Assembly: GCA_000004695.1 (NCBI GenBank)
Contig: CM000150.2
Span: 32,001-96,000, forward strand
Direction of reading: 5' to 3'
Length of the DNA: 64,000 bases
From: Dictyostelium discoideum
Lineage: Eukaryota
Each line of letters opens with the position of its first letter. Position 1 is the stretch's first letter. The position numbers were made by a program, and so were the translations under genes. The notes beneath the pieces were generated by a model that saw nothing but the letters and a program-made list of their open reading frames with translations, had not been told where the DNA came from and did not search any database. Shown here one piece after another: positions 2,926 to 40,976 of this stretch.

Positions 2926-3590
2926 TTTATATTATCATATATATATATATATTATGAATAACATTTATTTATTTGAATTTCCCAAATATCTAAGATAATT
3001 TTTTAGAATGTTATAGAACATTCGAAGAATAAAAAATTTTCCAAAGAAAAGTAAAAATTTCGAACCGGCACAATGACGCGATCATTGAGCAAGGTCGAAA
3101 AACATAAAAATTAAATTGAAACCTTTGATTTAAGAATGAAATCAATGGAAGATCAAATCAACAACCTTTCCTTAGCCTTTACAAGATTCATGAAAGAACC
3201 AATGTTCTATTCTAATAAAAATTCACGTAGCCAACCTTCTCATGATAACTCTGACACTGAGAATGAACAAAGTGAAGATGAATCAAGTAACAATTTCGAT
3301 GTTTCAACCGATTATCAATTATCCGATACCTTACTTGGTCAGTACAAACATATGGTAAACAATCAAGGTTTACTCGTAGAAGAAGAATGTATCCTCAAGA
3401 AAGATGAGATATCCGAATTGAATAAAGTATTCAACTTTCCATCTAACTTCCAAGTGAATGTCGCTCCATTTATTACACTTGAAGGTAATTCTGTATCATC
3501 CAACTTCAAAAACAATGATACTGACTTGTTGATTGTCGAAAAGAGAATCAATGATAGCTTGAAACCTTTGATTCTCTTTTTTTTATAAAT
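2926..3590 (+). mobile_element. DIRS-1 fragment D3: partial left ITR (about 2930-3105) plus ORF1 codons ~28-170 (3136-3588), inserted into the recombinase ORF of D2
   Basis: ttatattatcatatatat...gaatgttatagaacattc ITR start followed by MKSMEDQINNLSLAFTRF..., which is ORF1 from residue 28. Confidence 0.75.
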
Positions 3591-5698: not shown

Positions 5699-7884
5699 TT
5701 AATTCAGTCCCAAATAATTCATTATAATCATCATTAAATAAGTTGCTAAATGATTATATTGATTTGGTTTTAAGTTTCTAACAATTATTTGATTGATAAA
5801 ATCTGTGACTGATTTATTTTCTTTTACATGCAACTGATTATCTTCTTTCCTTTGTATATTGGATGACATATCTGGATTAGAAACAAATTTGGAATTGATT
5901 AGACACTTTCGGAGAACATTCGAGACAATTCTGACCATGATTTGAGCTTGACCATTACCATGATGGTGGTAAGGCAGACATGTATTGTGAGTAATATTGT
6001 TGACTTGAATACATTTCTTCCAAGGTGTTGATGTGAACAAAGTATCATTATACTCAACTTGATCAACAGTACAGGCATCCAACCCGGATATAAAGTCCAT
6101 ATTGATTTCCATAAAGCATCAGACAGGTAAATGAGATGGCAAGTATAATCCCATGTTCATCTGTGGCGCATAAACAAACATTGCAACTCTTGCAGTAAAA
6201 TAAGATATATTCCATCATTCCATACCAATAAAAATTTCTCTTGACTAATTCAGAAGTTTTACGATTACTCCAGTGTCCAGCAATAGCAGAATCATGATAA
6301 CTTGAAATGACTAACTGTATGACATCTTCAATCTTGATCCATTCGATACCATTCTGATATGTGATACTTAAACTTTTATACTGGTCGTTGATGGTTTCAG
6401 ATTTAATAAGTTTAGCTTCCAATTCATAACCTTTTAAAATTTCCTTAACGATCTTCATTTCATCAAGAATGATACCTGTATTAAAATAATTTTTATCACA
6501 AAAAGAATTTTTAAGAGAGTTAGTAATTTGAGAGAAGTCCATTTTACTTCGATCGAAGTTATGTGATAAATATTATTATTATAATGTGATCTGAAAGACC
6601 ATCAGCGGCTGAATTGGTGACGCCTTTGATGTATTCAAGTGTGACTTTTCAGGCATCAATCTTCTGCATCCATCTGTTGATTCTTTGATTTAACCCAAGG
6701 ACCCTTTGGTTTCTTAGGAATTAAATATTATTATGATGATTACCTTGAACCCAAAGATATTGAAGTGATGCATTTCTAATGATTTCACGAATAGGCTTCC
6801 TTTTCTAACACATTCAAGGTAGAATGGATACTTGGTATTTGGAAGGTTGAGACTTACCGCATTGGCTACAGCTGATTTAACTTGATCAAAAGCCAATTGC
6901 ACCTCAGTATCCCATGTGAAAGCAGAATTCTTCTTAGTGAGACGATAGAGTGGATCAGCTATAATGGCTAAATTTCGGATGAAATCCTTGCAATAATTAA
7001 CGGTTCCCATAAATTATCTAACGGTAGTCTTATCAATTGGTTCTGGCCACTCGACGATTTGACACGGATGAAGAGTTGTACTACATTACATTGAGGTTAT
7101 GATACTTGAGCTTATTGAATACCTGTGATAAATCTTGTTTATGTTGATCATAATAAAAAGATTTTGTTAGTACTAAAATATCATCGATATAGACCACGAC
7201 GAGTCCTCAATCGATTTCATCGGCCAATATTTGTTACATAAATCTTTGAAAAGTATACGGTGCATTCTTGGCACCGAATGGCATTCCCCTCCACTGGAAT
7301 GTACCAAAAGGTGTATGGAATGCTGTCTTTGACCGATCTCTAGGTTCTACTTGGATCTGGTGGAAACCATCGGCTAAATCGATCCTGGACATTAACTTTG
7401 CACCTTTGGTCTTCTGGATGAGTACCGTTGTATTTGGAAGTGGATAACTATCATAAATAGTAAAGTCATTTAATGAACGGTTATCGATGCACATTCACCA
7501 CTTACCATTTTTCTTCTTTGCGAATATCACTGGTGCACCGAATTCTGATTTGTTTCTTTCAATCCATAACTTCTTTAACCTTTCAGTAAGTTGATCTTTC
7601 AATTCTTGTTATATTGACAATAGTACTGGATAACATCTTGATTTTGGAACTTGTGCACCATATTTTAACTTCACTTCAAAATTGAAACCTTTCCGAGATG
7701 GCGGAACTTGGTCTAATGAATCGAAGACTTCCTTGTAGTTTCCCTTCAGATGTTTGATGATGAATTGATCTTGAACTTCTTTCCATTCTTGGTGTTTTAC
7801 TTCCACTACCTTGTATTTCTCTTGATTTGGCTGATGATTAACTTTGTGAACTTGGTACGTTGGTTGATGATTGAAGACCTCTTG
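5699..7884 (-). mobile_element. Ty3/gypsy-type LTR-retrotransposon pol fragment (Skipper/DGLT-like), degenerate: protease end and RT (7234-7806), RT thumb (6714-7010), integrase HHCC zinc finger and core (5699-6542); no LTRs in view
   Basis: Motifs VPPSRKGFNFEVKLKYGAQVPKSR.YPV, LMSRIDLADGFHQIQV, FGTFQWRGMPFGAKNAPYTFQRFM, HDSAIAGHW..C..C and an integrase core. Multiple stops and frameshifts. Confidence 0.7.
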
Positions 7885-7889
7885 ATCAT

Positions 7890-10049
7890 ATGAGCCAACA
7901 AAATTTAAATGAAAATTTTATAATTGATGAGAATAATAATAATTTAGAAAATGAAAATGAAAATGAAAATGAAAATAATTCATTTGAGGATATAGGAAAT
8001 ATATTAAACCAAAATGGACAAGAAAATGATGATATTGAAATTTTAAAAGAAAAAGAAAATGGAAATTTAGGAAAAGAATTAAATAATTATGAAATTGGAT
8101 TTTTAAAGTTGGGTTTAGAAAATGCTAAATCGTTAAAATTTATGCAACAAATTTTGGATTTTTTTAAAAACAATATAAATGCAATTAATGAAATTAGATA
8201 TACAACAAAGTATATGGATTCTATATTTTTAGCAAATTTACCTATCGATGGTCACTTTTTGAGTTACAAATATTATGAAGAGTCAATTTTTTATTATGAA
8301 ATTTGTTCAGTTGTAAAATTATTAATTGAAAAAAAAATTTTTTTAGAATATTTAGATTTCTCAAAAGACTATGAGCAAGGTATTTATAAAAATTATAAAT
8401 CTGGAGAACAATTCAAAAAAGTAAAAAATTCAATTTCAGATAAATTTATTTTATTAAGAATATTTAGTGACGGAATGAGTCATCAAGGTAGATCAGATTA
8501 TACTATAATGGTGGATTTTGAAAATTATAATGGTCCATTTTTTAAAAATAACAAAATTGTTTTATTTAGTGTTCCAAAAGAAAGGTTTCACAATATACAT
8601 CAAACAATTAAAAAATTATTTTCAGCGCAATTTAATAATAAATTAATAATTAAAGATAATAATGGAAATGATTATGAAATTATACCATATGGATTAACAA
8701 TGGATATACCAGAATTTAGATCATCTTGTAGGATTAACCATTATAATTGCAATGAGTTCTCATGTCATACATGTGATAAAGCAAGAGGTGTCGATTATTT
8801 ATTAAAAGAAGGAAATTATAGAAATCAAAAAGACATTATTGACTTTCACAATTCAAAACCAAATAAACAAGATTTTTTGAATCCTCAAAATAAAATTTTA
8901 AAATTAGAAACAGAACAAAAAATGAAAAAAATCGGCATTACAGATTATGACAGATCTTGGGTAGAAAATTTAAAAATAAATTATTTGTACTTACATACTG
9001 ATATTTTACACAAAATATTATTGGGTATTGTACAATGGGTTTTAAATTATATTTTCAAAAAATATAAGGATCAAATTACAATTTTTATAAAAAAATTAAA
9101 AGAAGCTAAAATCATTCCAGATCATTTACCACCATCAGAATCTTTATTTGGTGTAAAAACAAGAAAAGGTAGAGAGAATAGAAGCATATTATATTTTATT
9201 TTATTTTTTACTAAATCAAATGTATCAAATGATGATTCCTTATTATTAGAAGAAATGGTTCAGATTACTTTTTTATTATATCAAGATTCTTTCGACGAAG
9301 ATGATTTGGATAAAATAAATTATTTAGTTAAAAATTTTAATAAAAAAATATTTATGATAATACCAAATGAACCAATCAACTTTCACCTTTTATTACATTA
9401 TCCTTTATATATAAAAAATTGGGGTGCACCAAAATTTACATCAGCAGAGAGATTTGAAGCACAATTTAGTAAAATTAAAGACCTTTTGACAAACAATACA
9501 AACAACCAAGATCAACATAAATTTGAAAGAGTAACAAAAATATTAATGGCAACATTTTTAGATAATTTTAACAATCTAAAAGAAAAAGATGATGACAATA
9601 ATGATTTAATTTTAGGGCAAATAATTAAAAAAAATGAAAATATTTATTTAAAAAATAATATTTTATCAGACATTAACTTGCATTACAAAAACATTGAAAA
9701 TATTCAATTTCATAAATCAATTAAAAATTTAAAAGAAATATATAATGTTGGTGATGGAATTGAAGTTGCCTCAGAAAATTCATTAACTGGACGATGGAGT
9801 GCAATAATTATTGCTATTTGTTTAATAGAATTAAAAAATAAAAAAAGTGCACATTCTATTTATATACAATACTTTGATAAAGATATAGGTGATCAAAATA
9901 ATAAGTACCACTTTTTAAGAAAAAGCTTTTCAAGTATAGTATTTGATAACATAGTAAACACATTAATACCAATACAAATCGATTCGTCTAACTATCTTAT
10001 AATTTATAAGTGCCATGACCAATTTTCAATAAGTAAAAAAAAAAAATGA
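7890..10049 (+). CDS. Family-A transposase, N-terminally truncated (equals residues ~100-816 of the 31591-34041 copy)
   Basis: 719-aa ORF. Motifs IIPYGLTMDIPEF, HYNCNEFSCHTCDK, DILHKILLGIVQ, NFHLLLHYPLYIKNWGAPKFTSAERFEAQFSKIK and a C-terminal GDGIEVASENSLTGRWSAII...LIIYKCHD domain resemble the Transposase_21/DUF4218/DUF4216 blocks of CACTA TnpD. Confidence 0.7.
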   Translation: MSQQNLNENFIIDENNNNLENENENENENNSFEDIGNILNQNGQENDDIEILKEKENGNLGKELNNYEIGFLKLGLENAKSLKFMQQILDFFKNNINAINEIRYTTKYMDSIFLANLPIDGHFLSYKYYEESIFYYEICSVVKLLIEKKIFLEYLDFSKDYEQGIYKNYKSGEQFKKVKNSISDKFILLRIFSDGMSHQGRSDYTIMVDFENYNGPFFKNNKIVLFSVPKERFHNIHQTIKKLFSAQFNNKLIIKDNNGNDYEIIPYGLTMDIPEFRSSCRINHYNCNEFSCHTCDKARGVDYLLKEGNYRNQKDIIDFHNSKPNKQDFLNPQNKILKLETEQKMKKIGITDYDRSWVENLKINYLYLHTDILHKILLGIVQWVLNYIFKKYKDQITIFIKKLKEAKIIPDHLPPSESLFGVKTRKGRENRSILYFILFFTKSNVSNDDSLLLEEMVQITFLLYQDSFDEDDLDKINYLVKNFNKKIFMIIPNEPINFHLLLHYPLYIKNWGAPKFTSAERFEAQFSKIKDLLTNNTNNQDQHKFERVTKILMATFLDNFNNLKEKDDDNNDLILGQIIKKNENIYLKNNILSDINLHYKNIENIQFHKSIKNLKEIYNVGDGIEVASENSLTGRWSAIIIAICLIELKNKKSAHSIYIQYFDKDIGDQNNKYHFLRKSFSSIVFDNIVNTLIPIQIDSSNYLIIYKCHDQFSISKKKK

Positions 10050-11825: not shown

Positions 11826-12127
11826 AAAGGTATAGACAGGGTCATAGGTTCCCCGTCATTTTTTGAAAATGGGGTATATCCCTCTAAATAAATAAATCTA
11901 AAGCTAAATCCTATATTGACTTGCTATATTGCTAAAATTTGAATAAAATGAAAAAAAAAAAAAAAAATCGTAAAAACTCGAGGAAAAAAAAAAAAAAAAT
12001 ATTATTTTTAATTTCCACCCAGCAAACAAAATGAATTTAAATAACATATCATGCATTAATTGCAGAGAAAAATTAAAGAATTTTAAAAATATTATTATTC
12101 ATTATTTTATGCATAAAAATATATGTC
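11826..12127 (+). mobile_element. Family-B 5' region plus first 32 codons of its transposase (ATG at 12031), truncated at 12128 by a MITE-like insertion
   Basis: 11826-12127 aligns with 36707-37010 (aaaggtatagacagggtcataggttccccgtc...atgaatttaaataacatatcatgcattaattgc). Confidence 0.6.
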
Positions 12128-12764
12128 CACAGCAAAGAAAAATGCACCTTTAAAGCAAATTTAAAGCAAAGTTGATTTAAATTTGATTTAAATTGAATTT
12201 AAAGCCGCATTTAAAAAATTCATTTTTAAGGTAATTTTTAAGGTTATTTTTAAGATATTTAAAAATGCTTTTAAAATTTGCTTTAAAATAAATTTTTAAG
12301 CAATTTTAAAGGTGATTTTAAAGGTGATTTTAAAGGTGATTTTTAAGGTAATTTTTAAGATAATTTTTAAGATATTTAAAAATACCTTTAAAATTTATTT
12401 TAAATTAATTTTAAATTGAATTTAAGTAGATTTAAAGTAGATTTATAGTGAATTTAAATTTCCTTTAAATATAAATTTAAGGTTTTTAATAAAAAAGATC
12501 TAATTTTAGATCAAAATGGGGATAAAATATTCTATCAATTTTAAATTTTCATCAAAGCAATCAAATGGTGAAATGGTTGATGAGACTACCCTTTGATAAA
12601 GGGTCGGGGGGTAGAATCCCTTTTGGTAATTTTTGAAAAATTTAAAAAAAAAATTAAATAATTTTATCCGTTAAATAACGGCTTCGAACTCAGGACCTCG
12701 CTTTTAAAGCGATTAAAAAGGTTATTTTAAAGGTAATTTTTAAGGTGATTTTAAAGTAAACTTT
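12128..12764 (+). mobile_element. CACAG-terminus nonautonomous (MITE-like) element, copy i, 3'-truncated; contains GGTGATTTTAAA-type tandem repeats and a tRNA-like module (about 12545-12720)
   Basis: Starts CACAGCAAAGAAAAATGCACCTTTAAAGCAAATTTAAAG, the same as the termini of the complete copy at 55858-56605. Confidence 0.55.
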
Positions 12765-12812
12765 TAAATTTTTCAAGTAGCTTTAAACTTATTGAGTTTT
12801 CAATTCCCAACA
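12765..12812 (-). mobile_element. 48-bp fragment of the family-B transposase gene (reverse orientation)
   Basis: Reverse complement matches 37500-37547 (..FLMLGIENSISLKLLEKF..). Confidence 0.45.
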
Positions 12813-13654
12813 TTAAACACCGTCCAATAGCTCGTTAGTGGATATAATTCTTTCGTGGAACGTTTTAATGTGCGGGTGTTTCCGCGCCAATGACGGCTAG
12901 CTGGTGGTCGCTTTTTGTAATAACGAACAAGATTGAACAGAGATATCATCATTTGCGATCAACTTAAATAAATAGTCGACAGTCTGGGGAGTAGTGGGCA
13001 TTTCTGGATCGATAAGGTAAGCGTGACGATCATTTTAAATGGTTTCGCCTAAGCCCTTAACTTTACGTGCAACCATCTCAGTAAATTGCTCTGTGGTTAT
13101 TACACCCGCTGTGAGGTCTTGTTTACAGTTAGCGTACCATTGATCTAATTTTTGATTTGGTGTTTGTTTCATGATTGATACTCACTAATGGCTGATAGTA
13201 TTTAATGGGATGCGTGTTTCTTCAGACGACGCTGTAATACCGAATAGCCTTTGTTGAACCGTTCAGCATATAAATTTGACAAGCCGTTATACTGTATGAT
13301 GCGCCGCCATCCATCCGATGCTTACTGCTCAAATGAGGCTGCTGAACGACACAGTACCTTGAATGCCGGCATTAGATTCGATCACCTCATTGCTGGTTTC
13401 AAATGACACTGGCGCACGTCCGACGACCAGACCATCTTTAAGATTGTCGTAAGCTGTTGCGTACTGTAGCAAAGCACGTTTGAAATATAAATTGATTACC
13501 ACAACTAGAACGTTAGGGTTACGTATAGTATACTCAATTAACCAGCGAGTTTTCCCAGTTTGACGTGAGCCACTGAAGCCAATTGTAAACAACTCTCGTA
13601 AATGACATGCCTTAGTACCGCCAAGATTATTAGCAGCGCTACGCATTATTTAAA
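12813..13654 (-). other. Compositionally foreign (visibly higher-GC) prokaryote/phage-like segment, left half; continues at 18479 beyond the DIRS insertion
   Basis: Base composition differs sharply from the flanking AT-rich DNA. Contains a P-loop ORF and a further small ORF (MKQTPNQKLDQWYANCKQDLTAGVITTEQFTEMVARKVKGLGETI) on the minus strand. Confidence 0.5.
13329..13646 (-). CDS. P-loop NTPase fragment resembling the N-terminal ATPase of phage large-terminase subunits (Walker A GSRQTGKT; compare T4 gp17 SRQLGKT)
   Basis: 105-aa ORF; ATG at 13646 abuts the DIRS insertion point. Assignment is motif-based only. Confidence 0.4.
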   Translation of the reverse strand: MRSAANNLGGTKACHLRELFTIGFSGSRQTGKTRWLIEYTIRNPNVLVVVINLYFKRALLQYATAYDNLKDGLVVGRAPVSFETSNEVIESNAGIQGTVSFSSLI

Positions 13655-14104
13655 AATTTAATTTATTAAATTATATTTTATATTAAATATATATATATAT
13701 ATTATGAATAACATTTATTTATTTGAATTTCCCAAATATTTAAGATAATTTTTTAGAATGTTCTAGAACATTCGAAGAATAAAAAAAAATTTTCGAAAGA
13801 AAAGTAAAAATTTCGAACCGGCACAATGACGCGATCATTGTGTAAGGTCGAAAAACTGAAAAATTCCGAACCGACACTATGCACAAAGTTGTGAAGGGTC
13901 GAAAACTCTTATTTTTTTGAGTTTTGCGAAATTTTTAAGAAAATAAAAACGTATAAATAGTGGCACAAAAAACTAAAACAATTTGATTTATGGAATTCCG
14001 ACTAAGGGCGGGTGGGATGGGACTAATATATATATATATATTTAATATAAAATATAATTTAATAAATTAAATTTTTAATTTATATTATCATATATATATA
14101 TATA

Positions 14105-17100
14105 TTATGAAATTTGGACGACAGTATTTAAGAAACCACCAGATTTTTCACCAATGATTCTTTTATCGTAGAAGGTATCTACAGTATCATTTGATTTCCA
14201 ACGACCCATCTTCTTAACAACGTGGAACGGAACGTTATTGGACAACAGCAGAGAAGCCATAGCGGAACGGGTAGAGTGAGATTTGAACTTGACAATATCA
14301 ATACCTGACTTTGAGAGTGTTGATAGTACAATTGAGTTAATATCATTAACTTGGAGCGGTTCACCCTCATTCTTAATAAAGACAGAGTCACCCGAATGGG
14401 GCTTTCTTCTTCCTTTAGAGGCTCTAAGGTATGTTGCAAGGTGGCGAACAGGGCATACTTGAGAGTTTGTATCATCTAACGATGTTAATTCTAATATTGA
14501 AACAACACCACTTCTTTGTTCTTTAGCATTAATAACTGGACCTTTAATTGAGTCAGTAGTAATAATGAGACCTTTGAACGACCACTTCACCAAGTCTGAT
14601 GATCTTGCTAAACCAAACATTTTACAGAGTACAAGTGTCTTGTTTAATAGCGCAGTGTATGTGTACTTAGGGATAACTTTGATAGTAGATAAGTGCTTGA
14701 ATACTTGATTTGCATCCCATATCTCTTTATACTTTGCAGATGAAGGACGCAACTTGTGAATACCAGTCATAATTCTTGTGATGAATGGATCATTAACAAT
14801 ATCAGTTTGATTCCTGAGGAGTAACAACTGATTCAACATAGAGCGATGACCGTTAATTGTTGAGAAGGCTAACGGAGGTTTGTGTTTGAATAGATGTGTA
14901 AGATAATCCATGAAAACAACTAAGGTAATGTTTGCTGGATTCAAAGAGTTCAAAGTACAGAAATTGCGGAATCTTGTATAACTGGAGCTATATACTTTGA
15001 GAGTTGAAGGTTCCCAAGACTTCATTAACAGCTCAGCTGTTTTTGTATTTGCTGTACGAGCGAAGGACATTACATGAGATTGGAAAGTTGAATAATCCCC
15101 AGTTTCCAACGTTGTTGAATCTGGATTGGTATCGACTCTACTGATTGTTTGGTCAATACTTCTTGGAATGTTCCCAGTACTTGAGGGAACATGTGACGAT
15201 GATGACGAGGAACTTGTGCTTGAATCATCGGATACCAAGTTGCTGATCTCCAGATTGGGAAGATCAGTATTATAGAAACCTTCTTCGAACTGGATGAGTT
15301 CATCTTCTCCAGGATAGAAGGCAAAAGAATGGGTGGTGGGAAGGCCAGACATTGCTTCCATTGACTCCAGTCGAGGTGGAGTGCATTCATTCTGATTGTT
15401 GAGTAGTTGTTCGTTTGATGGTTCAGGTGAGATGCGAACAGATCCATCTGTATTTGACCGAATTGAAGTTGGATGCGATTGAACACTTCTTTCTTCAGTT
15501 GCCAGTTGTAACTCTTGATTACTCTGGTGGATGATTTGTGATTCATCTCTGAAAGACGGCTGAGGTGGTCGGCTTTTACATTGAAGAATCCTGGAATATG
15601 CTCTCCAATCAAGTTCACTTTCTTTTTGAGGCATTGTTTCCAAAGTTGTTCGAACAGAACTGAGAGATCTTGTATTTGACCACCCTGGCGATTGATGTAA
15701 GAGAGAGTAGTAGTGTTGTCGGTTTGAATCTTCAGCTTGCAGTTGTTTAGTTTCCGACATAGCGCTTGATAGGCCATAAGCAGCGCGAGCATTTCTCGAC
15801 GATTTGACGACATGTTTGATTGAGTTGTTGACCACTGGAATGACCAAGTTTTGATTACCTTGTTTCCTTTCTTGAGTGTGGCACCTGCACCTGATTCCGA
15901 GGCATCGGTTGTAAGAACATAGTCGTAACTTGGAAACAGACTGATTTCTTTTCCATTCCATTGGTTTAGAACTGTTAACCAATGCGAAATCTCTGACTTG
16001 ACCTCTTGGGGAATGGGGAATGATTGATCCCAATCTCCTTTGGCTATAGTCAGACACTGAGAGTGAAACTTGTTTGTTCGACGAGTGTAAAGTCTGAATG
16101 GGATGACTGCATCTTTCAGTGCGATTAACTTTCCTTTTAAACCAGCAAGCTTTCTTGGGGAGCAACAATCTAGTTTTAAAAAGTTTCTTATTTCTTTGAT
16201 GACACTTTTCTTCTTTTCTTTGGGAACAAGAAGCTTCATTGATACCGAATCGATTTGTAATCCGAGAAACGTAATTGATTGAGTTGGTTCGAGAACACTC
16301 TTTTCTAGATTTAACTTGAAGCCTAGTTTGACAAGTAAGTCCATTGTCTTTTTGAGGTTGGATAAACATTCTTCTTTTGTTGAACCGACGATTAATAGAT
16401 CGTCCAAGTAAGCGATGACGGATACGTTGATATCTCTCAACATTCGAAGTACAGGTCTTAACAGCATTGTAAATATACGAGGAGCTGTCGATAACCCGAA
16501 CGGCATTGTTTTCCAACGGTAGTGCGAACCTTTCCACACGAAGCGGAATAAGTCTCTGTATTGTGGATCTACTAACACGTGGAGGTAGGCTTTCTTGATA
16601 TCGAGTTTTACCATGTAATAACCTTGTTTGACCATTGACGGTAGATTCTTGATTCCTTCCATCTTGAATGATTGGTTGTTGATGTAAGTGTTTAACCTTT
16701 TTAGATCGAGAACTGGACGATGTAGATTCGTTCCAGGTTTTGGAACCGTAAACACGTTGGAGTAAAAAACGCGCTTTGAATAACGGTTTGGAAGTACTTG
16801 TTCGATAGCATCGTCTAATAACAAGTCTTGTACTTCCTTTGTGATGCAATCTGATTTCGGACCCTCTGGAATTGAAATCGGAATTGGGTTTAGCATCGGC
16901 TTGAAATTTGGAAGCAGATGGACTTTTAATCCATTTACGACCTCTTGACAAAAGTTTGGAAGACCCAATTCTTTCCAAACTTGTTTGTGGTGGAACAGAC
17001 GTCCACCTACTGGTAAGTTTACTTCTTGTTCTTCTGAAAACGGTTGTTGGTACCGTTTGCAGACTTGGTATTGTTGCTACCTGATGCAACACTACTTGGT

Positions 17101-17182
17101 GATCCATTGAAGTTGTTAGATCGGCCATTACTCCCACTACTGGATTTACTATTACTACTGTTTCCTGTAGTGTTATTACCAC
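14105..17182 (-). CDS. DIRS-1 long overlapping frame (ORF2), 1025 aa; C-terminal ~300 aa (about 14105-15060) is the tyrosine-recombinase domain; the N-terminal part overlaps ORF3 in another frame
   Basis: Open in all intact copies (also 20425-23520, 42542-45619). The true translation start is uncertain. Confidence 0.7.
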   Translation of the reverse strand: MVITLQETVVIVNPVVGVMADLTTSMDHQVVLHQVATIPSLQTVPTTVFRRTRSKLTSRWTSVPPQTSLERIGSSKLLSRGRKWIKSPSASKFQADAKPNSDFNSRGSEIRLHHKGSTRLVIRRCYRTSTSKPLFKARFLLQRVYGSKTWNESTSSSSRSKKVKHLHQQPIIQDGRNQESTVNGQTRLLHGKTRYQESLPPRVSRSTIQRLIPLRVERFALPLENNAVRVIDSSSYIYNAVKTCTSNVERYQRIRHRLLGRSINRRFNKRRMFIQPQKDNGLTCQTRLQVKSRKECSRTNSINYVSRITNRFGINEASCSQRKEEKCHQRNKKLFKTRLLLPKKACWFKRKVNRTERCSHPIQTLHSSNKQVSLSVSDYSQRRLGSIIPHSPRGQVRDFALVNSSKPMEWKRNQSVSKLRLCSYNRCLGIRCRCHTQERKQGNQNLVIPVVNNSIKHVVKSSRNARAAYGLSSAMSETKQLQAEDSNRQHYYSLLHQSPGWSNTRSLSSVRTTLETMPQKESELDWRAYSRILQCKSRPPQPSFRDESQIIHQSNQELQLATEERSVQSHPTSIRSNTDGSVRISPEPSNEQLLNNQNECTPPRLESMEAMSGLPTTHSFAFYPGEDELIQFEEGFYNTDLPNLEISNLVSDDSSTSSSSSSSHVPSSTGNIPRSIDQTISRVDTNPDSTTLETGDYSTFQSHVMSFARTANTKTAELLMKSWEPSTLKVYSSSYTRFRNFCTLNSLNPANITLVVFMDYLTHLFKHKPPLAFSTINGHRSMLNQLLLLRNQTDIVNDPFITRIMTGIHKLRPSSAKYKEIWDANQVFKHLSTIKVIPKYTYTALLNKTLVLCKMFGLARSSDLVKWSFKGLIITTDSIKGPVINAKEQRSGVVSILELTSLDDTNSQVCPVRHLATYLRASKGRRKPHSGDSVFIKNEGEPLQVNDINSIVLSTLSKSGIDIVKFKSHSTRSAMASLLLSNNVPFHVVKKMGRWKSNDTVDTFYDKRIIGEKSGGFLNTVVQIS
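15070..16968 (-). CDS. DIRS-1 ORF3 (reverse transcriptase / RNase H / C-terminal MT-like region), 632 aa, intact
   Basis: Motifs YLDDLLIVGS (RT), TDASESGAGATL and NVKADHLSR (RNase H). Confidence 0.85.
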   Translation of the reverse strand: MGLPNFCQEVVNGLKVHLLPNFKPMLNPIPISIPEGPKSDCITKEVQDLLLDDAIEQVLPNRYSKRVFYSNVFTVPKPGTNLHRPVLDLKRLNTYINNQSFKMEGIKNLPSMVKQGYYMVKLDIKKAYLHVLVDPQYRDLFRFVWKGSHYRWKTMPFGLSTAPRIFTMLLRPVLRMLRDINVSVIAYLDDLLIVGSTKEECLSNLKKTMDLLVKLGFKLNLEKSVLEPTQSITFLGLQIDSVSMKLLVPKEKKKSVIKEIRNFLKLDCCSPRKLAGLKGKLIALKDAVIPFRLYTRRTNKFHSQCLTIAKGDWDQSFPIPQEVKSEISHWLTVLNQWNGKEISLFPSYDYVLTTDASESGAGATLKKGNKVIKTWSFQWSTTQSNMSSNRREMLALLMAYQALCRKLNNCKLKIQTDNTTTLSYINRQGGQIQDLSVLFEQLWKQCLKKKVNLIGEHIPGFFNVKADHLSRLSEMNHKSSTRVIKSYNWQLKKEVFNRIQLQFGQIQMDLFASHLNHQTNNYSTIRMNALHLDWSQWKQCLAFPPPILLPSILEKMNSSSSKKVSIILIFPIWRSATWYPMIQAQVPRHHRHMFPQVLGTFQEVLTKQSVESIPIQIQQRWKLGIIQLSNLM

Positions 17183-18026
17183 TTGAGTTAACTAATTTCT
17201 TGACATTGGACTTGGAATGATAATTCAATTTTAACAATGATTGTTTAGCTTCGTTGTTCTTTCTGATTGACTTGGCTAGCTTTCTTACACGTTCAGTTTC
17301 AGTTTCATCAAACATCTTTGGTGTATCCTTGATCTTAATTGGTAAGAGTACTTCAGAACCATAGATTTCTTTAGCGATGTTGTTACGACGGACACGACTA
17401 AGCGATGCTTGAGCATTAACGGCTAAAACGATTGCACTCTGAGTTAAGTAACTAATAAGTTCTACATCGACATTAGAGCTATCAGATGATAACATACTTG
17501 ACATGAGAAGCAAAGGTTTTAAGCTATCGTTGATTCGCTTTTCAACAATCAACAAGTCAGTATCATTGTTCTTGACGTTGGATGATACAGTAATACCTTC
17601 AGGTGTACCGAATGGAGCGACATTCACTTGGAAGTTAGATGGAAAGTTGAATACTTTATTCAATTCGGATATTTCATCTTTCTTGAGGATACATTCTTCT
17701 TCGACGAGTAAACCTTGATTGTTAACCATATGTTTGTACTGACCAAGTAAGGTATCGGATAATTGATAATCGGTTGGAACATCGACATTGTTACTTGATT
17801 CATCTTCACTTTGTTCATTCTCGGTGTCAGAGTCATCATGAGAAGGTTGGCTACGTGAATTGGTATTAGATGAGAACATAGGTTCTTTCATGAATCTTGT
17901 AAAGGCTAAGGAAAGGTTGTTGATTTGATCCTCCATTGATTTCATTCTTAAATCAAAGGATTCAGCGCTATTAGAGACAGAGGTACTACTACTAGAGGCA
18001 TCATTATTATTAACAGTGGTAGACAT
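17019..18026 (-). CDS. DIRS-1 ORF1 (Gag-like), 335 aa, intact
   Basis: Open ORF; same protein in copies at 28063-29070 and 45456-46463. Confidence 0.85.
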   Translation of the reverse strand: MSTTVNNNDASSSSTSVSNSAESFDLRMKSMEDQINNLSLAFTRFMKEPMFSSNTNSRSQPSHDDSDTENEQSEDESSNNVDVPTDYQLSDTLLGQYKHMVNNQGLLVEEECILKKDEISELNKVFNFPSNFQVNVAPFGTPEGITVSSNVKNNDTDLLIVEKRINDSLKPLLLMSSMLSSDSSNVDVELISYLTQSAIVLAVNAQASLSRVRRNNIAKEIYGSEVLLPIKIKDTPKMFDETETERVRKLAKSIRKNNEAKQSLLKLNYHSKSNVKKLVNSSGNNTTGNSSNSKSSSGSNGRSNNFNGSPSSVASGSNNTKSANGTNNRFQKNKK

Positions 18027-18478
18027 ATTTTATTGTTGATATCTAAAATTATAATATGAGAAAAATAATAATATTAAAAATTAATAAAGAGAAATAATTA
18101 TTTGTATAAAATTTGTGTGTGTGTGTATCTTAAATATATATAGGAGGAATTCCCAAATAAAATAAATCAAATTGTTTTAGTTTTTTGTGCCACTATTTAT
18201 ACGTTTTTATTTTCTTAAAAATTTCGCAAAACTCAAAAAAATAAGAGTTTTCGACCCTTCACAACTTTGTGCATAGTGTCGGTTCGGAATTTTTCAGTTT
18301 TTCGACCTTACACAATGATCGCGTCATTGTGCCGGTTCGAAATTTTTACTTTTCTTTCGAAAATTTTTTTTTATTCTTCGAATGTTCTAGAACATTCTAA
18401 AAAATTATCTTAAATATTTGGGAAATTCAAATAAATAAATGTTATTCATAATATATATATATATATGATAATATAAAT

Positions 18479-19567
18479 AATCGCAATACTTTTCTCAAGT
18501 TCTTGAACTATCGCATCATAATCAATGGTAGAAGTCATGATTTTTTACCTCATTTATTTAAGTGGTTGTATGAACCCACAGGGTTATAGTCCTCATAAAC
18601 AGGAAGTAGTAGACCAGGTGCATTAGGCATTATTATTAATACACGCTGACCACGCACATAAGGTTGGTTGTTAACATATTTAAAATCAGTTGCCACATAG
18701 CCTTTTGGAATTTCCATGTTAAACTAATCCTCTTAATAGGTGACCGATGGCGGGGTTGACCGTCAGACTTCTACAACACCCAACCACGTAATATCGGAAG
18801 TGCTTCTGTCATTGTTCTTTTATTTTTAGATGCTACGCGGTTGATTGTGGTTTACTTACACCAAAGTGTAAGCGTCGGTTATTTGCTGGCATACTTTCAG
18901 ACACGTCCCAAGTCTCCAATTCACCGCCTTCCGCTATTAAGGGTGCCTAATGACGGACATTCATCTCAAAATAAAACCAGGAGGGGTAAAACCATCCTAT
19001 ATACTAATCTTACGGACGTGGTGATATCGAATACCACATTCTGTAATTTAGATCATGATCGGTGTTATTTATTTAATGTTTTGGCTATTGCTATAACCGA
19101 CCAAGCTACTGTGTTTCCACAGAAATGACTCGAACCATCGACCCACAGCGTGTATATAGTGAGCTGGTGGTTTAACCTCCCAAGGGCGGTGTTCGACTAT
19201 TCGTCAAACGATGACAAGCTTTTTAATTTAATTAAACTACCACACCATCTACAATTTCGATTTTGGTAGAAGAGTTAGATTCAGTTAACGCGTAATCAAT
19301 GTTGGCTTCGAAATCCAGAATCTCTTTTTCCTACTGCTTGATTACTTTGCTGATCTCCAGCGGATACAGCACGCCTGGCTGATAACGTTCGATAACTGGA
19401 TTAACGAACGCAGCAATGGAAGCTTCATCGGCTTTCTTAGTACCGTTGAATGCTTCGGTGCGCGCGATATTTTCACGCTGGTCAAAATTGGAGTTACCGT
19501 TGTGACGAGATATCGATTCGTAGTTCGCTTTCAAAGCTTTGACAATATCGCGTTTCTCACCTAATGC
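18479..19567 (-). other. Continuation of the prokaryote/phage-like segment; small ORFs with SD-like GAGG spacing
   Basis: Minus-strand ORFs 19331-19534, 18550-18716 (MEIPKGYVATDFKYVNNQPYVRGQRV...) and 18479-18538 (MTSTIDYDAIVQELEKSIAI). aaataaatGAGGtaaaaaatcATG sits 7 nt before the last of these. Confidence 0.45.
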
Positions 19568-19579
19568 ATTATGTGCATG

Positions 19580-19974
19580 TGCAGCAAAGAAAAATCCACA
19601 TTTAAAGCAAATTTAAAGCAAAGTTGATTTAAATTGGATTTAAATTGAATTTAAAGCCGGGTTTAAAAAATTCATTTTCAAGGTAATTTTTAAGATAATT
19701 TTAAGATATTTAAAAATGCTTTAAAATTTATTTTAAAATAATTTTAAAGAGGATTTAAAGTTGATTTAAAGTAGATTTAAAGTGAATTAAAATTTCCTTT
19801 AAATATAAATTTAAGGTTTTTAATAAAAAACATCTAATTTTAGATCAAAAAAATGGGGATAAAATATTCTATCATTTTTAAATTATCATCAAAGCAATCA
19901 AATGGTGAAATGGTTGATGAGACTACCCTTTGATTGATGAGACTACCCTTTTGGTAAATTTTCAAAAAATTTAA
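19580..19974 (+). mobile_element. MITE-like element, copy ii (5' ~400 bp), truncated by DIRS copy D5
   Basis: ..CAGCAAAGAAAAATCCACATTTAAAGCAAATTTAAAGCAAAGTTGATTTAAATT... is collinear with 12128-12560 and with the reverse complement of 56180-56605. Confidence 0.5.
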
Positions 19975-22900
19975 AAATTTAATTTATTAAATTATATTTT
20001 ATATTAAATATATATATATATATATTATGAATAACATTTATTTATTTGAATTTCCCAAATATTTAAGATAATTTTTTAGAATGTTCTAGAACATTCGAAG
20101 AATAAAAAATTTTCGAAAGAAAAGTAAAAATTTCGAACCGGCACAATGACGCGATCATTGCGACAGGTCGAAAAACTGAAAAATTCCGAACCGACACTAT
20201 GCACAAAGTTGTGAAGGGTCGAAAATACTTATTTTTTTTGAGTTTTGCGAAATTTTTAAGAAAAGAAAAACTTATAAATAGGGCACTAAAAACTAAAACA
20301 ATTTGATTTATGGAATTCCGACTAAGGGCGGGTGGGATGGGACTAATATATATATATATTTAATATAAAATATAATTTAATAAATTAAATTTTTAATTTA
20401 TATTATCATATATATATATATATATTATGAAATTTGGACGACAGTATTTAAGAAACCACCAGATTTTTCACCAATGATTCTCTTATCGTAGAAGGTATCT
20501 ACAGTATCGTTTGATTTCCAACGACCCATCTTCTTGACAACGTGGAACGGAACGTTATTGGACAACAGCAGAGAAGCCATAGCGGAACGGGTAGAGTGAG
20601 ATTTGAACTTGGAAATATCAATACCTGACTTTGAGAGTGTTGATAGTACAATTGAGTTAATATCATTAACTTGGAGTGATTCACCTTCATTCTTAATAAA
20701 GACAGAGTCACCCGAATGGGGCTTTCTTCTTCCTTTAGAGGCTCTAAGGTATGTTGCAAGGTGGCGAACAGGGCATACTTGAGAGTTAGTATCATCTAAA
20801 GATGTTAATTCTAAGATTGAAACAACACCACTTCTTTGTTCTTTAGCATTAATAACTGGACCTTTAATTGAGTCAGGAGTAATAATGAGACCTTTGAACG
20901 ACCACTTCACCAAGTCTGATGATCTTGCTAAACCAAACATTTTACAGAGTACAAGTGTCTTGTTTAATAGCGCAGTGTATGTGTACTTAGGGATAACTTT
21001 GATAGTAGATAAGTGCTTGAATACTTGATTTGCATCCCATATCTCTTTATACTTTGCTGATGAAGGACGCAACTTGTGAATACCAGTCATAATTCTTGTA
21101 ATGAATGGATCATTAACAATATCAGTTTGATTCCTAAGGAGTAATAACTGATTCAACATAGATCGATGACCGTTAATTGTTGAGAAGGCTAACGGAGGTT
21201 TGTGCTTGAACAGATGTGTAAGATAATCCATGAAAACAACTAAGGTAATGTTTGCTGGATTCAAAGAGTTCAAAGTACAGAAATTGCGGAATCTTGTATA
21301 ACTGGAGCTATATACTTTGAGAGTTGAAGGTTCCCAAGACTTCATTAACAGCTCAGCTGTTTTTGTATTTGTTGTACGAGCGAAGGACATTACATGAGAT
21401 TGGAAAGTTGAATAATCCCCAGTTTCCAACGTTGTTGAATCTGGATTGGTATCGACTCTACTGATTGTTTGGTCAATACTTCTTGGAATGTTCCCAGTAC
21501 TTGAGGAAACATGTGACGATGATGACGAGGAACTTGTGCTTGAATCATCGGATACCAAGTTGCTGATCTCCAGATTGGGAAGATCAGTATTATAGAAACC
21601 TTCTTCGAACTGGATGAGTTCATCTTCTCCAGGATAGAAGGCAAAAGAATGGGTGGTGGGAAGGCCAGACATTGCTTCTATTGACTCCAATCGAGGTGGA
21701 GTGCATTCATTCTGATTGTTGAGTAGTTGTTCGTTTGATGGTTGAGGTGAGATGCGAACAGATCCATCTGTATTTGACCGAATTGAAGTTGGATGCGATT
21801 GAACACTTCTTTCTTCAGTTGCCAGTTGTGACTCTTGATTACTCTGGTCGATGATTTGTGATTCATCTCTGAAAGACGACTGAGGTGGTCGGCTTTTACA
21901 TTGAAGAATCCTGGAATATGCTCTCCAATTAAGTTCACTTTCTTCTTGAGGCATTGTTTCCAAAGTTGTTCGAACAGAACTGAGAGATCTTGTATCTGAC
22001 CACCCTGGCGATTGATATAAGAGAGAGTGGTAGTGTTGTCGGTTTGAATCTTCAGCTTGCAGTTGTTCAGTTTCTGACATAGCGCTTGATAGGCCATTAG
22101 CAGTGCGAGCATTTCTCGACGATTTGACGACATGTTTGATTGAGTTGTTGACCACTGGAATGACCAAGTTTTGATTACCTTGTTTCCTTTCTTGAGAGTG
22201 GCACCTGCACCTGATTCCGAGGCATCGGTTGTAAGAACATAGTCGTAACTTGGAAACAGACTGATTTCTTTTCCATTCCATTGGTTTAGAACTGTTAACC
22301 AATGTGAAATCTCTGACTTGACATCTTGAGGAATGGGGAATGATTGATCCCAATCTCCATTGGCTAGAGTCAGACACTGAGAGTGAAACTTGTTTGTTCG
22401 ACGAGTGTAAAGTCTGAATGGGATGACTGCATCTTTCAGTGCGATTAGCTTTCCTTTTAAACCAGCAAGCTTTCTTGGGGAGCAAAAATCTAGTATTAAA
22501 AAGTTTCTTATTTCCTTGATGACACTTTTCTTCTTTTCTTTGGGAACAAGAAGCTTCATTGATACCGAATCGATTTGTAATCCGAGAAACGTAATTGATT
22601 GAGTTGGTTCGAGAACACTCTTTTCTAAGTTTAACTTGAAACCTAGTTTGACAAGTAAGTCCATTGTCTTTTTGAGGTTGGATAAACATTCTTCTTTTGT
22701 TGAACCGACGATTAATAGATCGTCCAAGTAAGCGATGACGGATACGTTGATATCTCTCAACATTCGAAGTACAGGTCTTAACAACATTGTAAAGATACGA
22801 GGAGCTGTCGATAACCCGAACGGCATTGTTTTCCAACGGTAGTGCGAACCTTTCCACACGAAGCGGAATAAGTCTCTGTATTGCGGATCTACTAATACGT

Positions 22901-40690: not shown

Positions 40691-40976
40691 TTTAAATAAT
40701 TGCTTTTAAATTAATTTTTAAGTGACTTTTTTATAGGACTTTAAATCCACTTTTAATTTAATTTAAAGTTGCTTTAAAGGTGTAATTTTCATCGCTGTGA
40801 CTTATAAAGTATATTTATTAAGTATACTTATTAATTGTACTTATTAAGTATTATTTATTAAGTATACTTATTAATTGTACTTATTAAGTATTACTTATTA
40901 AGTATACTTATTAATATATATTAAAAAGAGTACTTGGATTTAAAGGTGCTTTAAAGTGTTGATTTTCGCCGCTGTG

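Follow-up and report, generated by a model that had tools for sequence, protein, structure and literature searches.

The window analysed here, 64,000 nucleotides of Dictyostelium discoideum AX4 chromosome 1, very probably contains a fossil of horizontally acquired bacteriophage DNA, the remains of a genuine, old, amplified and pseudogenised transfer into the amoeba. The foreign segment comprises window positions 12818-13649 and 18478-19581 (GC 0.41, ~1.9 kb once rejoined), both halves of which occur once in the 64-kb window, and its ORFs are annotated as DDB_G0267234 and DDB_G0267232. The segment and its immediate surroundings contain the following features.

12758-12817, unstranded: Z fragment, 60 bp, an internal part of another repeat, with an X copy (12128-12757) on one side and the phage DNA on the other
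12818-13034, minus strand: distal end of the phage-derived block, with short ORFs (MPTTPQTVDYLFKLIANDD...), GC 0.38-0.41, unique in the window
13035-13172, minus strand: 45-aa ORF MKQTPNQ..., DDB_G0267232, an exact match to XP_647777
13329-13649, minus strand: main part of the phage P-loop gene, from about codon 22 (tblastn, phrog_2586 and family alignment)
13650-18477, minus strand: full-length DIRS-1, 4828 bp, inserted in codon 21/22 of the phage P-loop gene
18478-18538, minus strand: first 20 codons (MTSTIDYDAIVQELEKSIAI) of the P-loop gene, from alignment to phage N-termini
18550-18717, minus strand: 55-aa ORF MEIPKGY..., located between the two identifiable phage genes and preceded by a good SD (AAGAGGA)
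19232-19581, minus strand: C-terminal half (about residues 103-217) of the gp202-like gene, phrog_1491 family
19582-19975, plus strand: X copy that truncates the gp202-like phage gene and is itself cut by the next DIRS-1

Alignment placed the left end of the segment at 12818, against the Z fragment, and the right end at 19581, where the terminal inverted repeat of X, a 749-bp transposon, starts. The original prediction of 12813-19567 was broadly right, the right-hand limit moving by 14 bases, and the compact, intronless minus-strand ORFs that it quoted are present. The short ORFs at 12818-13034 had no PHROG or Pfam match and no detected homologue, and neither the 45-aa nor the 55-aa ORF had a relative in PHROG or Pfam. 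GC content was 0.38-0.44 in 12750-13649 and 18600-19649 and 0.18-0.27 in the immediate flanks and DIRS terminal repeats. The excess had been described as holding over everything around the segment; it holds for the immediate flanks only, because the DIRS-1 coding interior is equally GC-rich (0.35-0.45). The segment nevertheless remains far above the host value of ~0.22, which implies a transfer of no great age or else slow decay.

Protein comparison, which had been proposed as a check, established a phage origin far beyond chance. Against 2.3 Gb of phage genomes, tblastn matched the gp202-like half to Agricanvirus phages (E 3e-22, 45.5 % identity) and the P-loop ORF to Salmonella phage SA002 gene 2060, Erwinia phage pEa_SNUABM_37 and others (E 9e-13, 46 % identity). 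PHROG profiles agreed, with phrog_1491 at 8e-20 and phrog_2586 at 5e-10, the latter match spanning the DIRS-1 junction. Positions 19089-19378 have 67 % nucleotide identity to Agricanvirus. The family phrog_1491 includes Desertfox gp202, annotated 'tail fiber protein', to which the reconstructed full-length gp202-like protein is 47 % identical, and phrog_2586 homologues are uncharacterised proteins of 168-194 aa. The earlier reading had missed that the right-hand ORF represents the truncated C-terminal half of a second gene from the phage.

Two adjacent genes of jumbo phages that infect Enterobacterales are collinear with the segment, at amino-acid identities of 42-47 % (and of 35-47 % where the P-loop gene is considered separately). 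These relatives are Erwinia Agricanvirus (Ea35-70, Desertfox gp202 region), Salmonella vB_SalM_SA002 and Serratia Moabitevirus, and related phage genomes encode a PhuZ tubulin and a nuclear-shell protein. The order from the gp202-like gene to the P-loop gene, their orientation and their ~1.3 kb spacing are the same in SA002, pEa_SNUABM_37 and a 287-kb IMG/VR phage, so that phrog_1491 and phrog_2586 are arranged as in nucleus-forming jumbo phages; the matching regions are SA002 genes 2050-2060, pEa_SNUABM_37 genes 221-227 and Serratia Moabitevirus Totoro genes 03160-03180. Both the phage regions and the Dictyostelium DNA have compact genes with ribosome-binding sites of bacterial type and, close by, an HNH endonuclease and tRNA genes; GC content is 0.43 in Totoro and 0.41 in the Dictyostelium segment. 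Unlike the phage regions, those in Dictyostelium have suffered truncations, frameshifts and interruption by eukaryotic transposons.

The annotated P-loop ORF (13329-13646, DDB_G0267234, an exact match to XP_647778) lacks the C-terminal 45-70 residues of its family, and its N terminus lies beyond the DIRS-1. Positions 18478-18538 align with residues 2-17 of SA002_2060 and pEa37_227 and with MTSTTTP.NWKAIVQELERGI of metagenomic jumbo phages, and an SD-like GAGG lies 9 nt 5' of the ATG at 18538. The short upstream ORF reported earlier is present with its GAGG but is not a separate coupled gene; it corresponds to residues 1-20 of the P-loop gene, shifted by one nucleotide. These codons are +1 out of frame with the remainder of the gene in both the window copy and the uninterrupted paralogue L009.

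The P-loop ORF had also been described as terminase-like, and this assignment was rejected. No terminase Pfam match was found for the ORF, and the phrog_2586 family profile retrieved no terminase from PDB even at E<=10. The P-loop ORF does have an SRQxGKT-type Walker A string, as in the T4-like large terminase ATPase (gp17), and this motif is intact in the window copy, but its lysine is not conserved across the family, being lost in the Totoro homologue. The family has no profile-level similarity to gp17, lacks a nuclease domain and is far shorter than gp17 at about 600 aa; the large terminase of Desertfox is a separate protein (gp184).

The bounds of the DIRS-1 were taken from the terminal consensus of 14 DIRS ends in the window, giving 13650-18477 (or 13651-18478, owing to a one-T ambiguity) in place of 13655-18478; its position precisely between the two halves stands. 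The element has RT, RNase H, Dam-like (methyltransferase-like) and tyrosine-recombinase domains, an ORF1 identical to DDB_G0267238 / AAA70200, and inverted terminal repeats that produce identical mirrored ORFs at 13740-13886 and 18267-18413. In paralogue L009, from an independent D. discoideum assembly, the empty site (11900-12060) reads GCGATTAATAATGCG, which is the reverse complement of the sequence from 18478 onward joined to the reverse complement of the sequence up to 13649. This shows directly that target bases were neither duplicated nor lost. The segment was contiguous before this precise insertion, and the foreign DNA therefore pre-dates the DIRS-1, as the original prediction held. 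The insertion resembles others in D. discoideum centromeres in being canonical and full-length, with inverted terminal repeats and no target duplication. It differs from them in its target, and because this is unique foreign DNA with an uninterrupted paralogue, the junction can be resolved at single-nucleotide level, something rarely feasible for DIRS-1 inserted into other DIRS-1 copies.

At least three copies of the segment are present in AX4 (besides the window, DDB_G0267284/286 and DDB_G0294314) and at least four in a second, independent assembly, GCA_054883475.1 (contigs 14, 22, 33 and 37). The copies differ by about 1-11 % and have junctions in common; no base-for-base equivalent of the window copy with its DIRS-1 was recovered from the second assembly, in which the nearest copies are 1.2-1.3 % different. 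Copies A and L006 have more than 1 kb of left flank in common, the junction at 12818 is kept in L006, and copies A, B and L007 have both the X junction and a DIRS-fragment junction in common. The X terminus, CAGCAAAGAAAAAT(G/C)CAC(C/A)TTTAAAGC, is common to three window copies whose outside flanks are unrelated, and comparison of a full element with its empty site showed inverted ends and a duplicated TT; X is a genuine mobile element. It occupies the identical site in the window, L007 and L009, and is absent from the gp202-like gene of L008. In the window it has removed the N-terminal half of this gene, which is found beyond X in L007 and L009. The Z fragment aligns with three longer Z copies (37498-37557, 59068-59127 and 63521-63580) and looks like filler at the original junction. 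Membership of a multi-copy family, like the pseudogene state described below, was overlooked in the earlier reading.

Because flanks and internal insertions are held in common, the copies would have arisen mostly by segmental duplication. Spread of the genuine block inside a transposon or an X/DIRS composite is unlikely, if the most credible of the alternatives. It would fit the presence of copies on several contigs, the X elements that flank or interrupt several of them, and the distal end of the phage DNA (window 12818), next to which copies A and L006 have Z and X whereas copy B has a DIRS-1 end. However, long common flanks and identical internal insertion sites are the pattern of regional duplication, no bounding pair of matching termini or target duplications surrounds the block, and copy B owes its different flank to a DIRS-1 that inserted later, within 0-4 nt of that junction.

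With passive duplication preferred, the history can be proposed as follows. At least 3-4 kb of an unsampled jumbo-phage genome (Agricanvirus / SA002-like / Moabitevirus kin) would have entered the D. discoideum germline, perhaps from phagocytosed phage or infected prey, Enterobacterales being typical amoeba prey. End-joining at a chromosome break most likely placed it in the centromeric repeat cluster, which is rich in DIRS-1. Listed in phage order, the block comprised HNH endonuclease and tRNA genes, the phrog_1491 gp202-like gene, small ORFs and the phrog_2586 P-loop gene. The block was then copied to several centromeric-repeat sites and the copies were struck repeatedly by transposons. Insertion of X into the gp202-like gene preceded the separation of copies A, B and D, and DIRS-1 entered codon 21/22 of the window P-loop gene by tyrosine-recombinase integration.

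Identity to the sampled phages is only 42-47 %, and the donor is therefore none of them. Across INPHARED, IMG/VR, JGI metagenomes and 1.84 billion protein representatives the best identity was 45-48 %, with no close donor, so the donor lineage is placed only through distant relatives. In other copies, no phage match was obtained for ~0.7 kb of the larger block (L007 8709-9427) or for the 340-bp insert of L007. A second foreign-looking block in the window had been overlooked.

40955-41932, minus strand: second foreign-looking block, adjoining a DIRS-1 end, GC 0.40 and found once in the window
40951-41293, minus strand: ankyrin-repeat-like ORF with a frameshift
about 41300-41750, minus strand: HNH homing-endonuclease pseudogene over three frames, phrog_14913 at 1.2e-15
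41872-41927, minus strand: weak (18 bits), 5'-truncated tRNA-like remnant with an 85 % nucleotide match to phage tRNA-Lys

In tblastn the HNH pseudogene had its best match (5e-15) in Serratia jumbo phage Totoro, to an HNH nuclease that lies ~0.9 kb from the Totoro P-loop homologue with a tRNA-Ser in between. Window positions 41235-41357 recur in L007 and L009, ~0.5 kb upstream of the gp202-like gene and ~1.8 kb upstream of frag1. The ankyrin-like ORF had no phage match, and a phage origin within this block is supported for the HNH nuclease and tRNA remnant only.

Ankyrin repeats are common in intracellular bacteria, and that ORF could point to indirect transfer, in which the phage genes would have arrived by way of a bacterial chromosome, endosymbiont or other vehicle with a phage remnant. 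Bacterial symbionts are indeed carried by wild Dictyostelium isolates (PMC12745789). This route is nonetheless improbable, as the gp202-like gene has no relative in 185,579 bacterial and archaeal species (one genome each) and phage gene order is matched over every recognisable part. The closest jumbo-phage relatives also belong to families known only to be lytic.

The phage genes of the window are dead: they are truncated and frameshifted, and one carries a nonsense mutation. At 19331-19333 the gp202-like gene has an in-frame TAG; the aligned phage residue is Leu or Met, and the codon in paralogue L008 is TTG. The +1 frameshift of the P-loop gene is common to copies. Copy B has a 400-bp deletion, and private substitutions among three copies comprise 15 GC>AT and 5 AT>GC. 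Other copies keep a phage-type tRNA-Ser and the missing gene half. That the acquired genes or the tRNA-Ser work in the amoeba, for example as a domesticated P-loop protein, is very doubtful: the ORFs are annotated as protein-coding in AX4, the window Walker A is intact and the tRNA-Ser of L007 scores 48.6 bits, but the P-loop gene is split and shortened, the gp202-like gene is halved, the tRNA anticodon varies between copies, the AT bias is as in neutral DNA and eukaryotic-type gene structure is absent. The block probably has no function in the amoeba and would have decayed neutrally, accumulating the nonsense codon, the frameshifts, the deletions and an AT-biased set of substitutions.

Enterobacteria are a common food for amoebae in culture and the segment GC is not ameliorated, which could suggest contaminating phage reads or an assembly chimera. 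Manual reconstruction from Sanger reads and read pairs also underlies the chromosome-1 centromere of AX4 (PMC2665215). Such an artefact is effectively refuted, since the foreign DNA recurs in AX4 and in the independent assembly with common Dictyostelium junctions (X, Z filler, DIRS fragment), distinct later indels and sequence divergence, its nonsense codon and frameshifts are not expected in a viable phage, and a chimera would require three precise mobile-element junctions; the acquisition is real, as originally argued.

No earlier report of this phage-to-amoeba transfer was found in the literature, and it is a rare multi-gene example of phage-to-eukaryote DNA transfer. Like NUMTs, NUPTs, Wolbachia/prophage WO fragments in insects and 'dead-on-arrival' bacterial HGT, it is a multi-gene foreign stretch in a tolerant, repeat-rich region, with probably neutral decay, later duplication and filler-like DNA at junctions. 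In contrast to those insertions, the donor was apparently a lytic bacteriophage of prey bacteria rather than an organelle or resident endosymbiont, the site is a transposon-built centromere, and the fragment is now a small repeat family.

The window lies at the DIRS-1-rich end of AX4 chromosome 1. Comparison of the window with itself showed that the foreign DNA spans 12818 to 19581; both of its stretches are single-copy within the window, and nearly all of the surroundings are repeated. The ORFs quoted in the original prediction were present, and several ORFs of the interval are identical to database entries.

ORFs of the interval identical to database entries
13329-13646, minus strand: ORF identical to XP_647778 (DDB_G0267234)
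13035-13172: ORF identical to XP_647777 (DDB_G0267232)
17019-18026: DIRS ORF1, identical to DDB_G0267238 / GenBank AAA70200

The two stretches had been described as higher in GC than everything around them. This holds relative to the immediate flanks and the DIRS terminal repeats (0.38–0.44 versus 0.18–0.27), but the DIRS-1 coding interior is just as GC-rich, so the contrast is limited to the immediate flanks. The left edge adjoins a 60-bp internal piece of a repeat, Z (12758-12817), preceded by a copy of X (12128-12757), an element with terminal inverted repeats; the right edge adjoins the terminus of a second X copy, at 19582. The Z fragment recurs at 37498-37557, 59068-59127 and 63521-63580, and its position exactly between X and the phage DNA resembles that of filler at an end-joined junction. 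In copy B, an AX4 paralogue of the type found at locus L009 of a second D. discoideum assembly, a DIRS-1 end lies 0–4 nt from the same phage end (L009 about 12414). Elsewhere, window 5700-7800 holds a degenerate LTR-retrotransposon fragment with RT, RNase H-like and integrase-like ORFs (GC 0.35–0.37), which is unique in the window, includes DDB_G0267224 as one of its ORFs and is unrelated to the phage block.

In tblastn searches the P-loop ORF matched a 194-aa hypothetical protein of the phages Salmonella SA002 and Erwinia pEa_SNUABM_37 (46%, E 9e-13), and phages of Serratia, Klebsiella and Pectobacterium matched likewise; the matches comprised 24 records, all Enterobacterales phages, with each listed genome 272–297 kb in size. 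Residues 3-81 of the protein aligned to positions 6-86 of the phrog_2586 profile (E 5.1e-10), and profile and gene neighbourhood together place it in this family, a jumbo-phage protein of unknown function. The window gene encodes only the N-terminal two thirds of the family protein, the C-terminal 45–70 residues being absent from the P-loop ORF. Weak alignments hinted that the MKQTPNQ ORF could be the shifted C-terminus, but at E>1 they were set aside. Querying a word-indexed protein collection with the reconstituted P-loop product returned no match, although the ORF itself is part of that collection. The short ORF MTSTIDYDAIVQELEKSIAI, directly right of DIRS-1, aligned to residues 2-17 of this 194-aa protein and to the N-terminus of metagenomic homologues, MTSTTTP.NWKAIVQELERGI. 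It is therefore the N-terminus of the same phage protein, and DIRS-1 split one phage gene; the two coupled genes proposed earlier are parts of that single gene.

The suggestion that the P-loop ORF is terminase-like was not borne out, given the lack of a terminase profile match, the size of the protein and a separate terminase gene in a relative. The reconstituted window protein matched no Pfam family at E<=1, and its full-length homologue SA002_2060 showed no terminase, with a single sub-threshold match to ASXH (E 0.087). Likewise, a six-member family profile run on the full set of PDB chains (E<=10) found no terminase; GCP2, polynucleotide kinase and RadA were the only matches and were non-significant. 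Whereas a large terminase has about 500–700 aa with ATPase and nuclease, homologues of the P-loop family have 168–194 aa, and the related phage Desertfox carries a separate 2196-bp ‘terminase large subunit’, gp184. The Walker A motif GxxxxGK[ST] is present as GSRQTGKT in the window and is kept in most homologues; by itself this motif does not define a terminase family, and the likeness of SRQxGKT to T4 gp17 holds at the motif level only. In the homologue of Serratia phage Totoro (TOTORO_03160, L010 4050-4556), SRQSGSS replaces SRQTGKT and the Walker A lysine is lost, so nucleotide binding may be dispensable in this phage family.

The second phage gene was recognized from the right half of the segment, in which 19089-19378 shares 67% of its nucleotides with jumbo phages of the Erwinia Agricanvirus group; for the left half, the nucleotide search against phages gave no match. 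The protein of 19232-19581 (minus strand) matched Agricanvirus gp202 at 45.5% identity (E 3e-22, tblastn). The window fragment aligned to positions 104-209 of the 211 of phrog_1491 (E 8e-20) and the N-terminal half, found in the paralogue L007, to positions 1-95 (E 3.9e-16), so that the profile match extends across the length of this family. The reconstructed gp202-like protein is 47% identical to Desertfox gp202, for which ‘tail fiber protein’ is an annotation label alone. Downstream of this gene, non-coding 19089-19231 is conserved with Agricanvirus at the nucleotide level, as part of the 67% match, and gives tblastx matches in several frames. Rfam returned no family in 18479-19600 and thus none for this stretch, which may be a regulatory or RNA element conserved in phages.

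The gp202-like and P-loop genes are neighbours in SA002, pEa_SNUABM_37 and a 287-kb IMG/VR phage (3300013104), in the order and orientation of the window and about 1.3 kb apart. Genes for PhuZ tubulin and a nuclear-shell protein mark the related phages as nucleus-forming jumbo phages. The transferred fragment holds none of the hallmarks that these relatives have (chimallin shell protein, PhuZ, multisubunit RNA polymerases), and it is the distribution of the two families, together with synteny, that points to a nucleus-forming jumbo phage (Chimalliviridae) as the putative donor. Across INPHARED, IMG/VR, JGI metagenomes and protein representatives, the best identity to any candidate donor was 45–48%, indicating that the donor is an unsampled phage. 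No close donor was found by a single-protein search of IMG/VR, and a profile search of IMG/VR and JGI metagenomes gave at most 48%. Among 1.84 billion protein representatives, the gp202-like fragment returned three close matches (81–96%), all of them Dictyostelium gene models, and otherwise only matches of 33–35%. Transfer through a bacterial intermediate is unlikely, since no relative was found among the 185,579 prokaryotic species genomes of GTDB and such jumbo phages are known only as lytic.

A second foreign-looking block of the window, 40955-41932, lay outside the original prediction; it has a GC of 0.40, is unique in the window and abuts a DIRS-1 end. Its HNH endonuclease gene is a pseudogene scattered across three frames (phrog_14913, 1.2e-15), for which Serratia jumbo phage Totoro supplies the best match, an HNH nuclease (5e-15). 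The block also has a truncated tRNA-like remnant (18 bits), the sole Rfam match there, and an ankyrin-like ORF, for which no phage match was found. Totoro has its HNH gene, a tRNA-Ser and its P-loop homologue side by side. Furthermore, about 120 bp of the second block (41235-41357) recurs in L007 and L009, about 0.5 kb upstream of the gp202-like gene and about 1.8 kb upstream of the sequence that joins the window's two phage halves. Because of this synteny and the shared 120-bp stretch, both window blocks probably go back to a single ancestral stretch of phage genome, at least 3–4 kb long. L007 and L009 also carry, at 9780-9869 upstream of the gp202-like gene, a class II tRNA-Ser(UGA) of bacterial/phage type. 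The L007 copy scores 48.6 bits in Rfam and is 84% identical to phage tRNA-Ser, and the L009 copy has its anticodon mutated to UAA. ARAGORN found no intact tRNA in the window, where this tRNA-Ser is not present.

The termini of DIRS-1 were defined by alignment of 14 DIRS-1 ends in the window; the left-type end begins TTAAAAATTTAATTT and the right-type end finishes ...GATAATATAAA. The element was assigned to DIRS-1 by its mirrored terminal ORFs (inverted terminal repeats), its RT/RNase H and tyrosine recombinase ORFs and its length of about 4.8 kb, with domain matches to RVT_1 (2.3e-27), RT_RNaseH (5e-10), Dam-like (1e-11) and Phage_integrase (4.7e-9; tyrosine recombinase). The Dam DNA N6-adenine methyltransferase match (PF05869, 1e-11) lies in the RT/RNase H ORF (15070-16968, minus strand) and is probably a known feature of DIRS elements. 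An uninterrupted paralogue was found at L009 (GCA_054883475.1, contig JBTAPE010000022), in which 10483-11978 matches window 19993-18478 and 11978-12166 matches window 13650-13462. Its empty site, ...GAGAAAAGTATTGCGATTAATAATGCGTAGCGCTGCT..., equals the window's two flanks joined, which sets DIRS-1 at 13650-18477 (4828 bp, with a one-T ambiguity), with neither target duplication nor loss of target bases. The empty site thus directly demonstrates that the foreign DNA is older than the DIRS-1 insertion and, to within one base, that no target was duplicated, both as originally predicted. The contig of L007 (JBTAPE010000033, position 1; L007 12330) ends exactly at the base of window 18479, the DIRS-1 junction; the same insertion may conjecturally be present there, with the assembler breaking at the repeat edge.

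Paralogous copies were located both in AX4 and in the second, independent D. discoideum assembly, which probably represents one of the isolates of the Nanopore and Illumina project PRJNA1300491 (Holland et al. 2025, PMC12745789).

Gene models and loci of the paralogous copies
ACTFIT_003263: in L007, at the end of a 4.89-Mb contig
ACTFIT_001947: in L008
ACTFIT_001916: in L009
DDB_G0267286: in AX4, adjoining DDB_G0267284
DDB_G0267284: in AX4, a 61-aa P-loop copy, the exact sequence of which is encoded by L009
DDB_G0294314: in AX4, the L007 variant, carried by an unplaced contig of 5,151 bp
L006: 98.8% identical to window 12818-13568, with >1 kb of left flank in common

AX4 therefore has at least three copies (A, the window copy; B, DDB_G0267284/DDB_G0267286; and D, DDB_G0294314) and the second assembly at least four, in which no base-identical counterpart of copy A was found. 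Divergence is 1.3–2.1% among A, L007 and L009 and about 9–11% for L008. L006 is cut by an X-type terminus at the equivalent of window 13566. In L007 and L009, X (about 0.6–0.75 kb) and a 340-bp insert lie between the C- and N-terminal halves of the gp202-like gene; in L008 the site lacks X. The X element measures 749 bp, ends in inverted repeats of about 28 bp (CACAGCAAAGAAAAATGCACCTTTAAAGC...) and shows a TT duplication when compared with an empty site in L007.

Copies of X
Window 12128-12757
Window 19582-19975
Window 55858-56605
L009 8667-9415

X holds a tRNA-like internal stretch and has inserted into phage-derived DNA at least twice. At the break in the gp202-like gene, L007 10250-10630 contains a palindromic junction, GGCAAAGAATAC-TGTGTG-GTATTCTTTGCC, which suggests a fold-back or inversion rearrangement; beyond it lies a GC-rich insert of 340 bp, the opposite strand of which has a 93-aa ORF. 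Neither this insert nor a 0.7-kb GC-rich stretch at L007 8709-9427 had a family match.

The order of events was reconstructed from shared versus private features. The block would have been acquired first, after which the L008 lineage would have split off. Next, the gp202-like gene would have received X and been rearranged, and the TTG>TAG change and the +1 frameshift, as seen in copies A and B, would have arisen; the frameshift may also predate the L008 split, since the region concerned is absent from L008. Duplication would then have given rise to copies A, B, D and L006, and the private events would be the DIRS-1 insertion in A, a 400-bp deletion and the DIRS-1 at the distal junction in B, and the X-type insertion in L006.

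The state of the genes was assessed from frames and substitutions. At the empty site the 20 N-terminal codons are out of frame by +1 with the MRSAANN... ORF, and in phage homologues of the P-loop gene the two parts, equally spaced, belong to a single unbroken ORF. In the gp202-like gene, an in-frame TAG occupies 19331-19333, where phages have Leu or Met and the more diverged L008 has TTG, and the window lacks the N-terminal half of the gp202-like gene. Private substitutions among three copies number 15 GC>AT versus 5 AT>GC, with G or C at only 41% of sites, a bias that fits the pattern expected of neutral decay in an AT-rich genome. An intact frame and conservation between copies, the marks of a functional transferred gene, were not found; the inactivating lesions comprise the nonsense codon, frameshifts, truncations and the 400-bp deletion in copy B. 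Judged by these lesions, the phage block is a non-functional fossil.

Paralogues with shared junctions in two assemblies, together with the inactivating mutations, exclude contamination or an assembly chimera, and the segment is a genuine acquisition as proposed. Phage-collinear DNA is embedded in host repeats, with the filler-like 60-bp Z piece at one junction, and the block carries no integration machinery of its own. We infer that phage DNA would have been taken up along with phagocytosed prey or virions and captured by end-joining at a double-strand break in a gene-free, transposon-tolerant centromeric region, followed by neutral persistence, segmental duplication and later transposon hits. 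It is very improbable that transposon-built centromeres capture the phage DNA of prey repeatedly or preferentially, with jumbo genomes, shielded by their protein ‘nucleus’, surviving phagosomal digestion better than other DNA and the block having a role in centromeric heterochromatin; there it might act, for example, as a small-RNA source or as unique sequence helping array maintenance. If true, a phage-to-eukaryote route of the ‘you are what you eat’ kind would still be in operation, and this would be a visible instance of it.

Literature searches (gene identifiers; Dictyostelium with phage or centromere; jumbo phage with HGT) found no earlier description, and the AX4 centromere paper does not mention phage DNA (PMC2665215). 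The acquisition is of a known kind, a foreign-DNA insertion in a eukaryotic genome, and is more extensive than originally predicted; it is unusual in its donor, a lytic jumbo phage of prey bacteria, in its collinearity over several genes, in its place in the centromere and in having been amplified. Few transfers from phages to eukaryotes have been documented, and those known mostly concern single domesticated genes or came in together with endosymbiont DNA. In the present case the germline of a bacterivorous model amoeba contains several collinear genes from a lytic jumbo phage, which shows that viral DNA from the prey can enter a eukaryotic nucleus and be retained there.

The block is also useful because it is unique, non-host sequence within a centromere of near-identical transposons. 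DIRS-1 and X junctions can be read in it to the nucleotide against matching empty sites, its successive duplications form a datable record for studies of centromere turnover, and it is a convenient marker for assembling and comparing Dictyostelium centromeres. Finally, DDB_G0267232, DDB_G0267234, DDB_G0267284, DDB_G0267286 and DDB_G0294314 should be re-annotated as phage-derived pseudogene fragments and not as amoeba genes.
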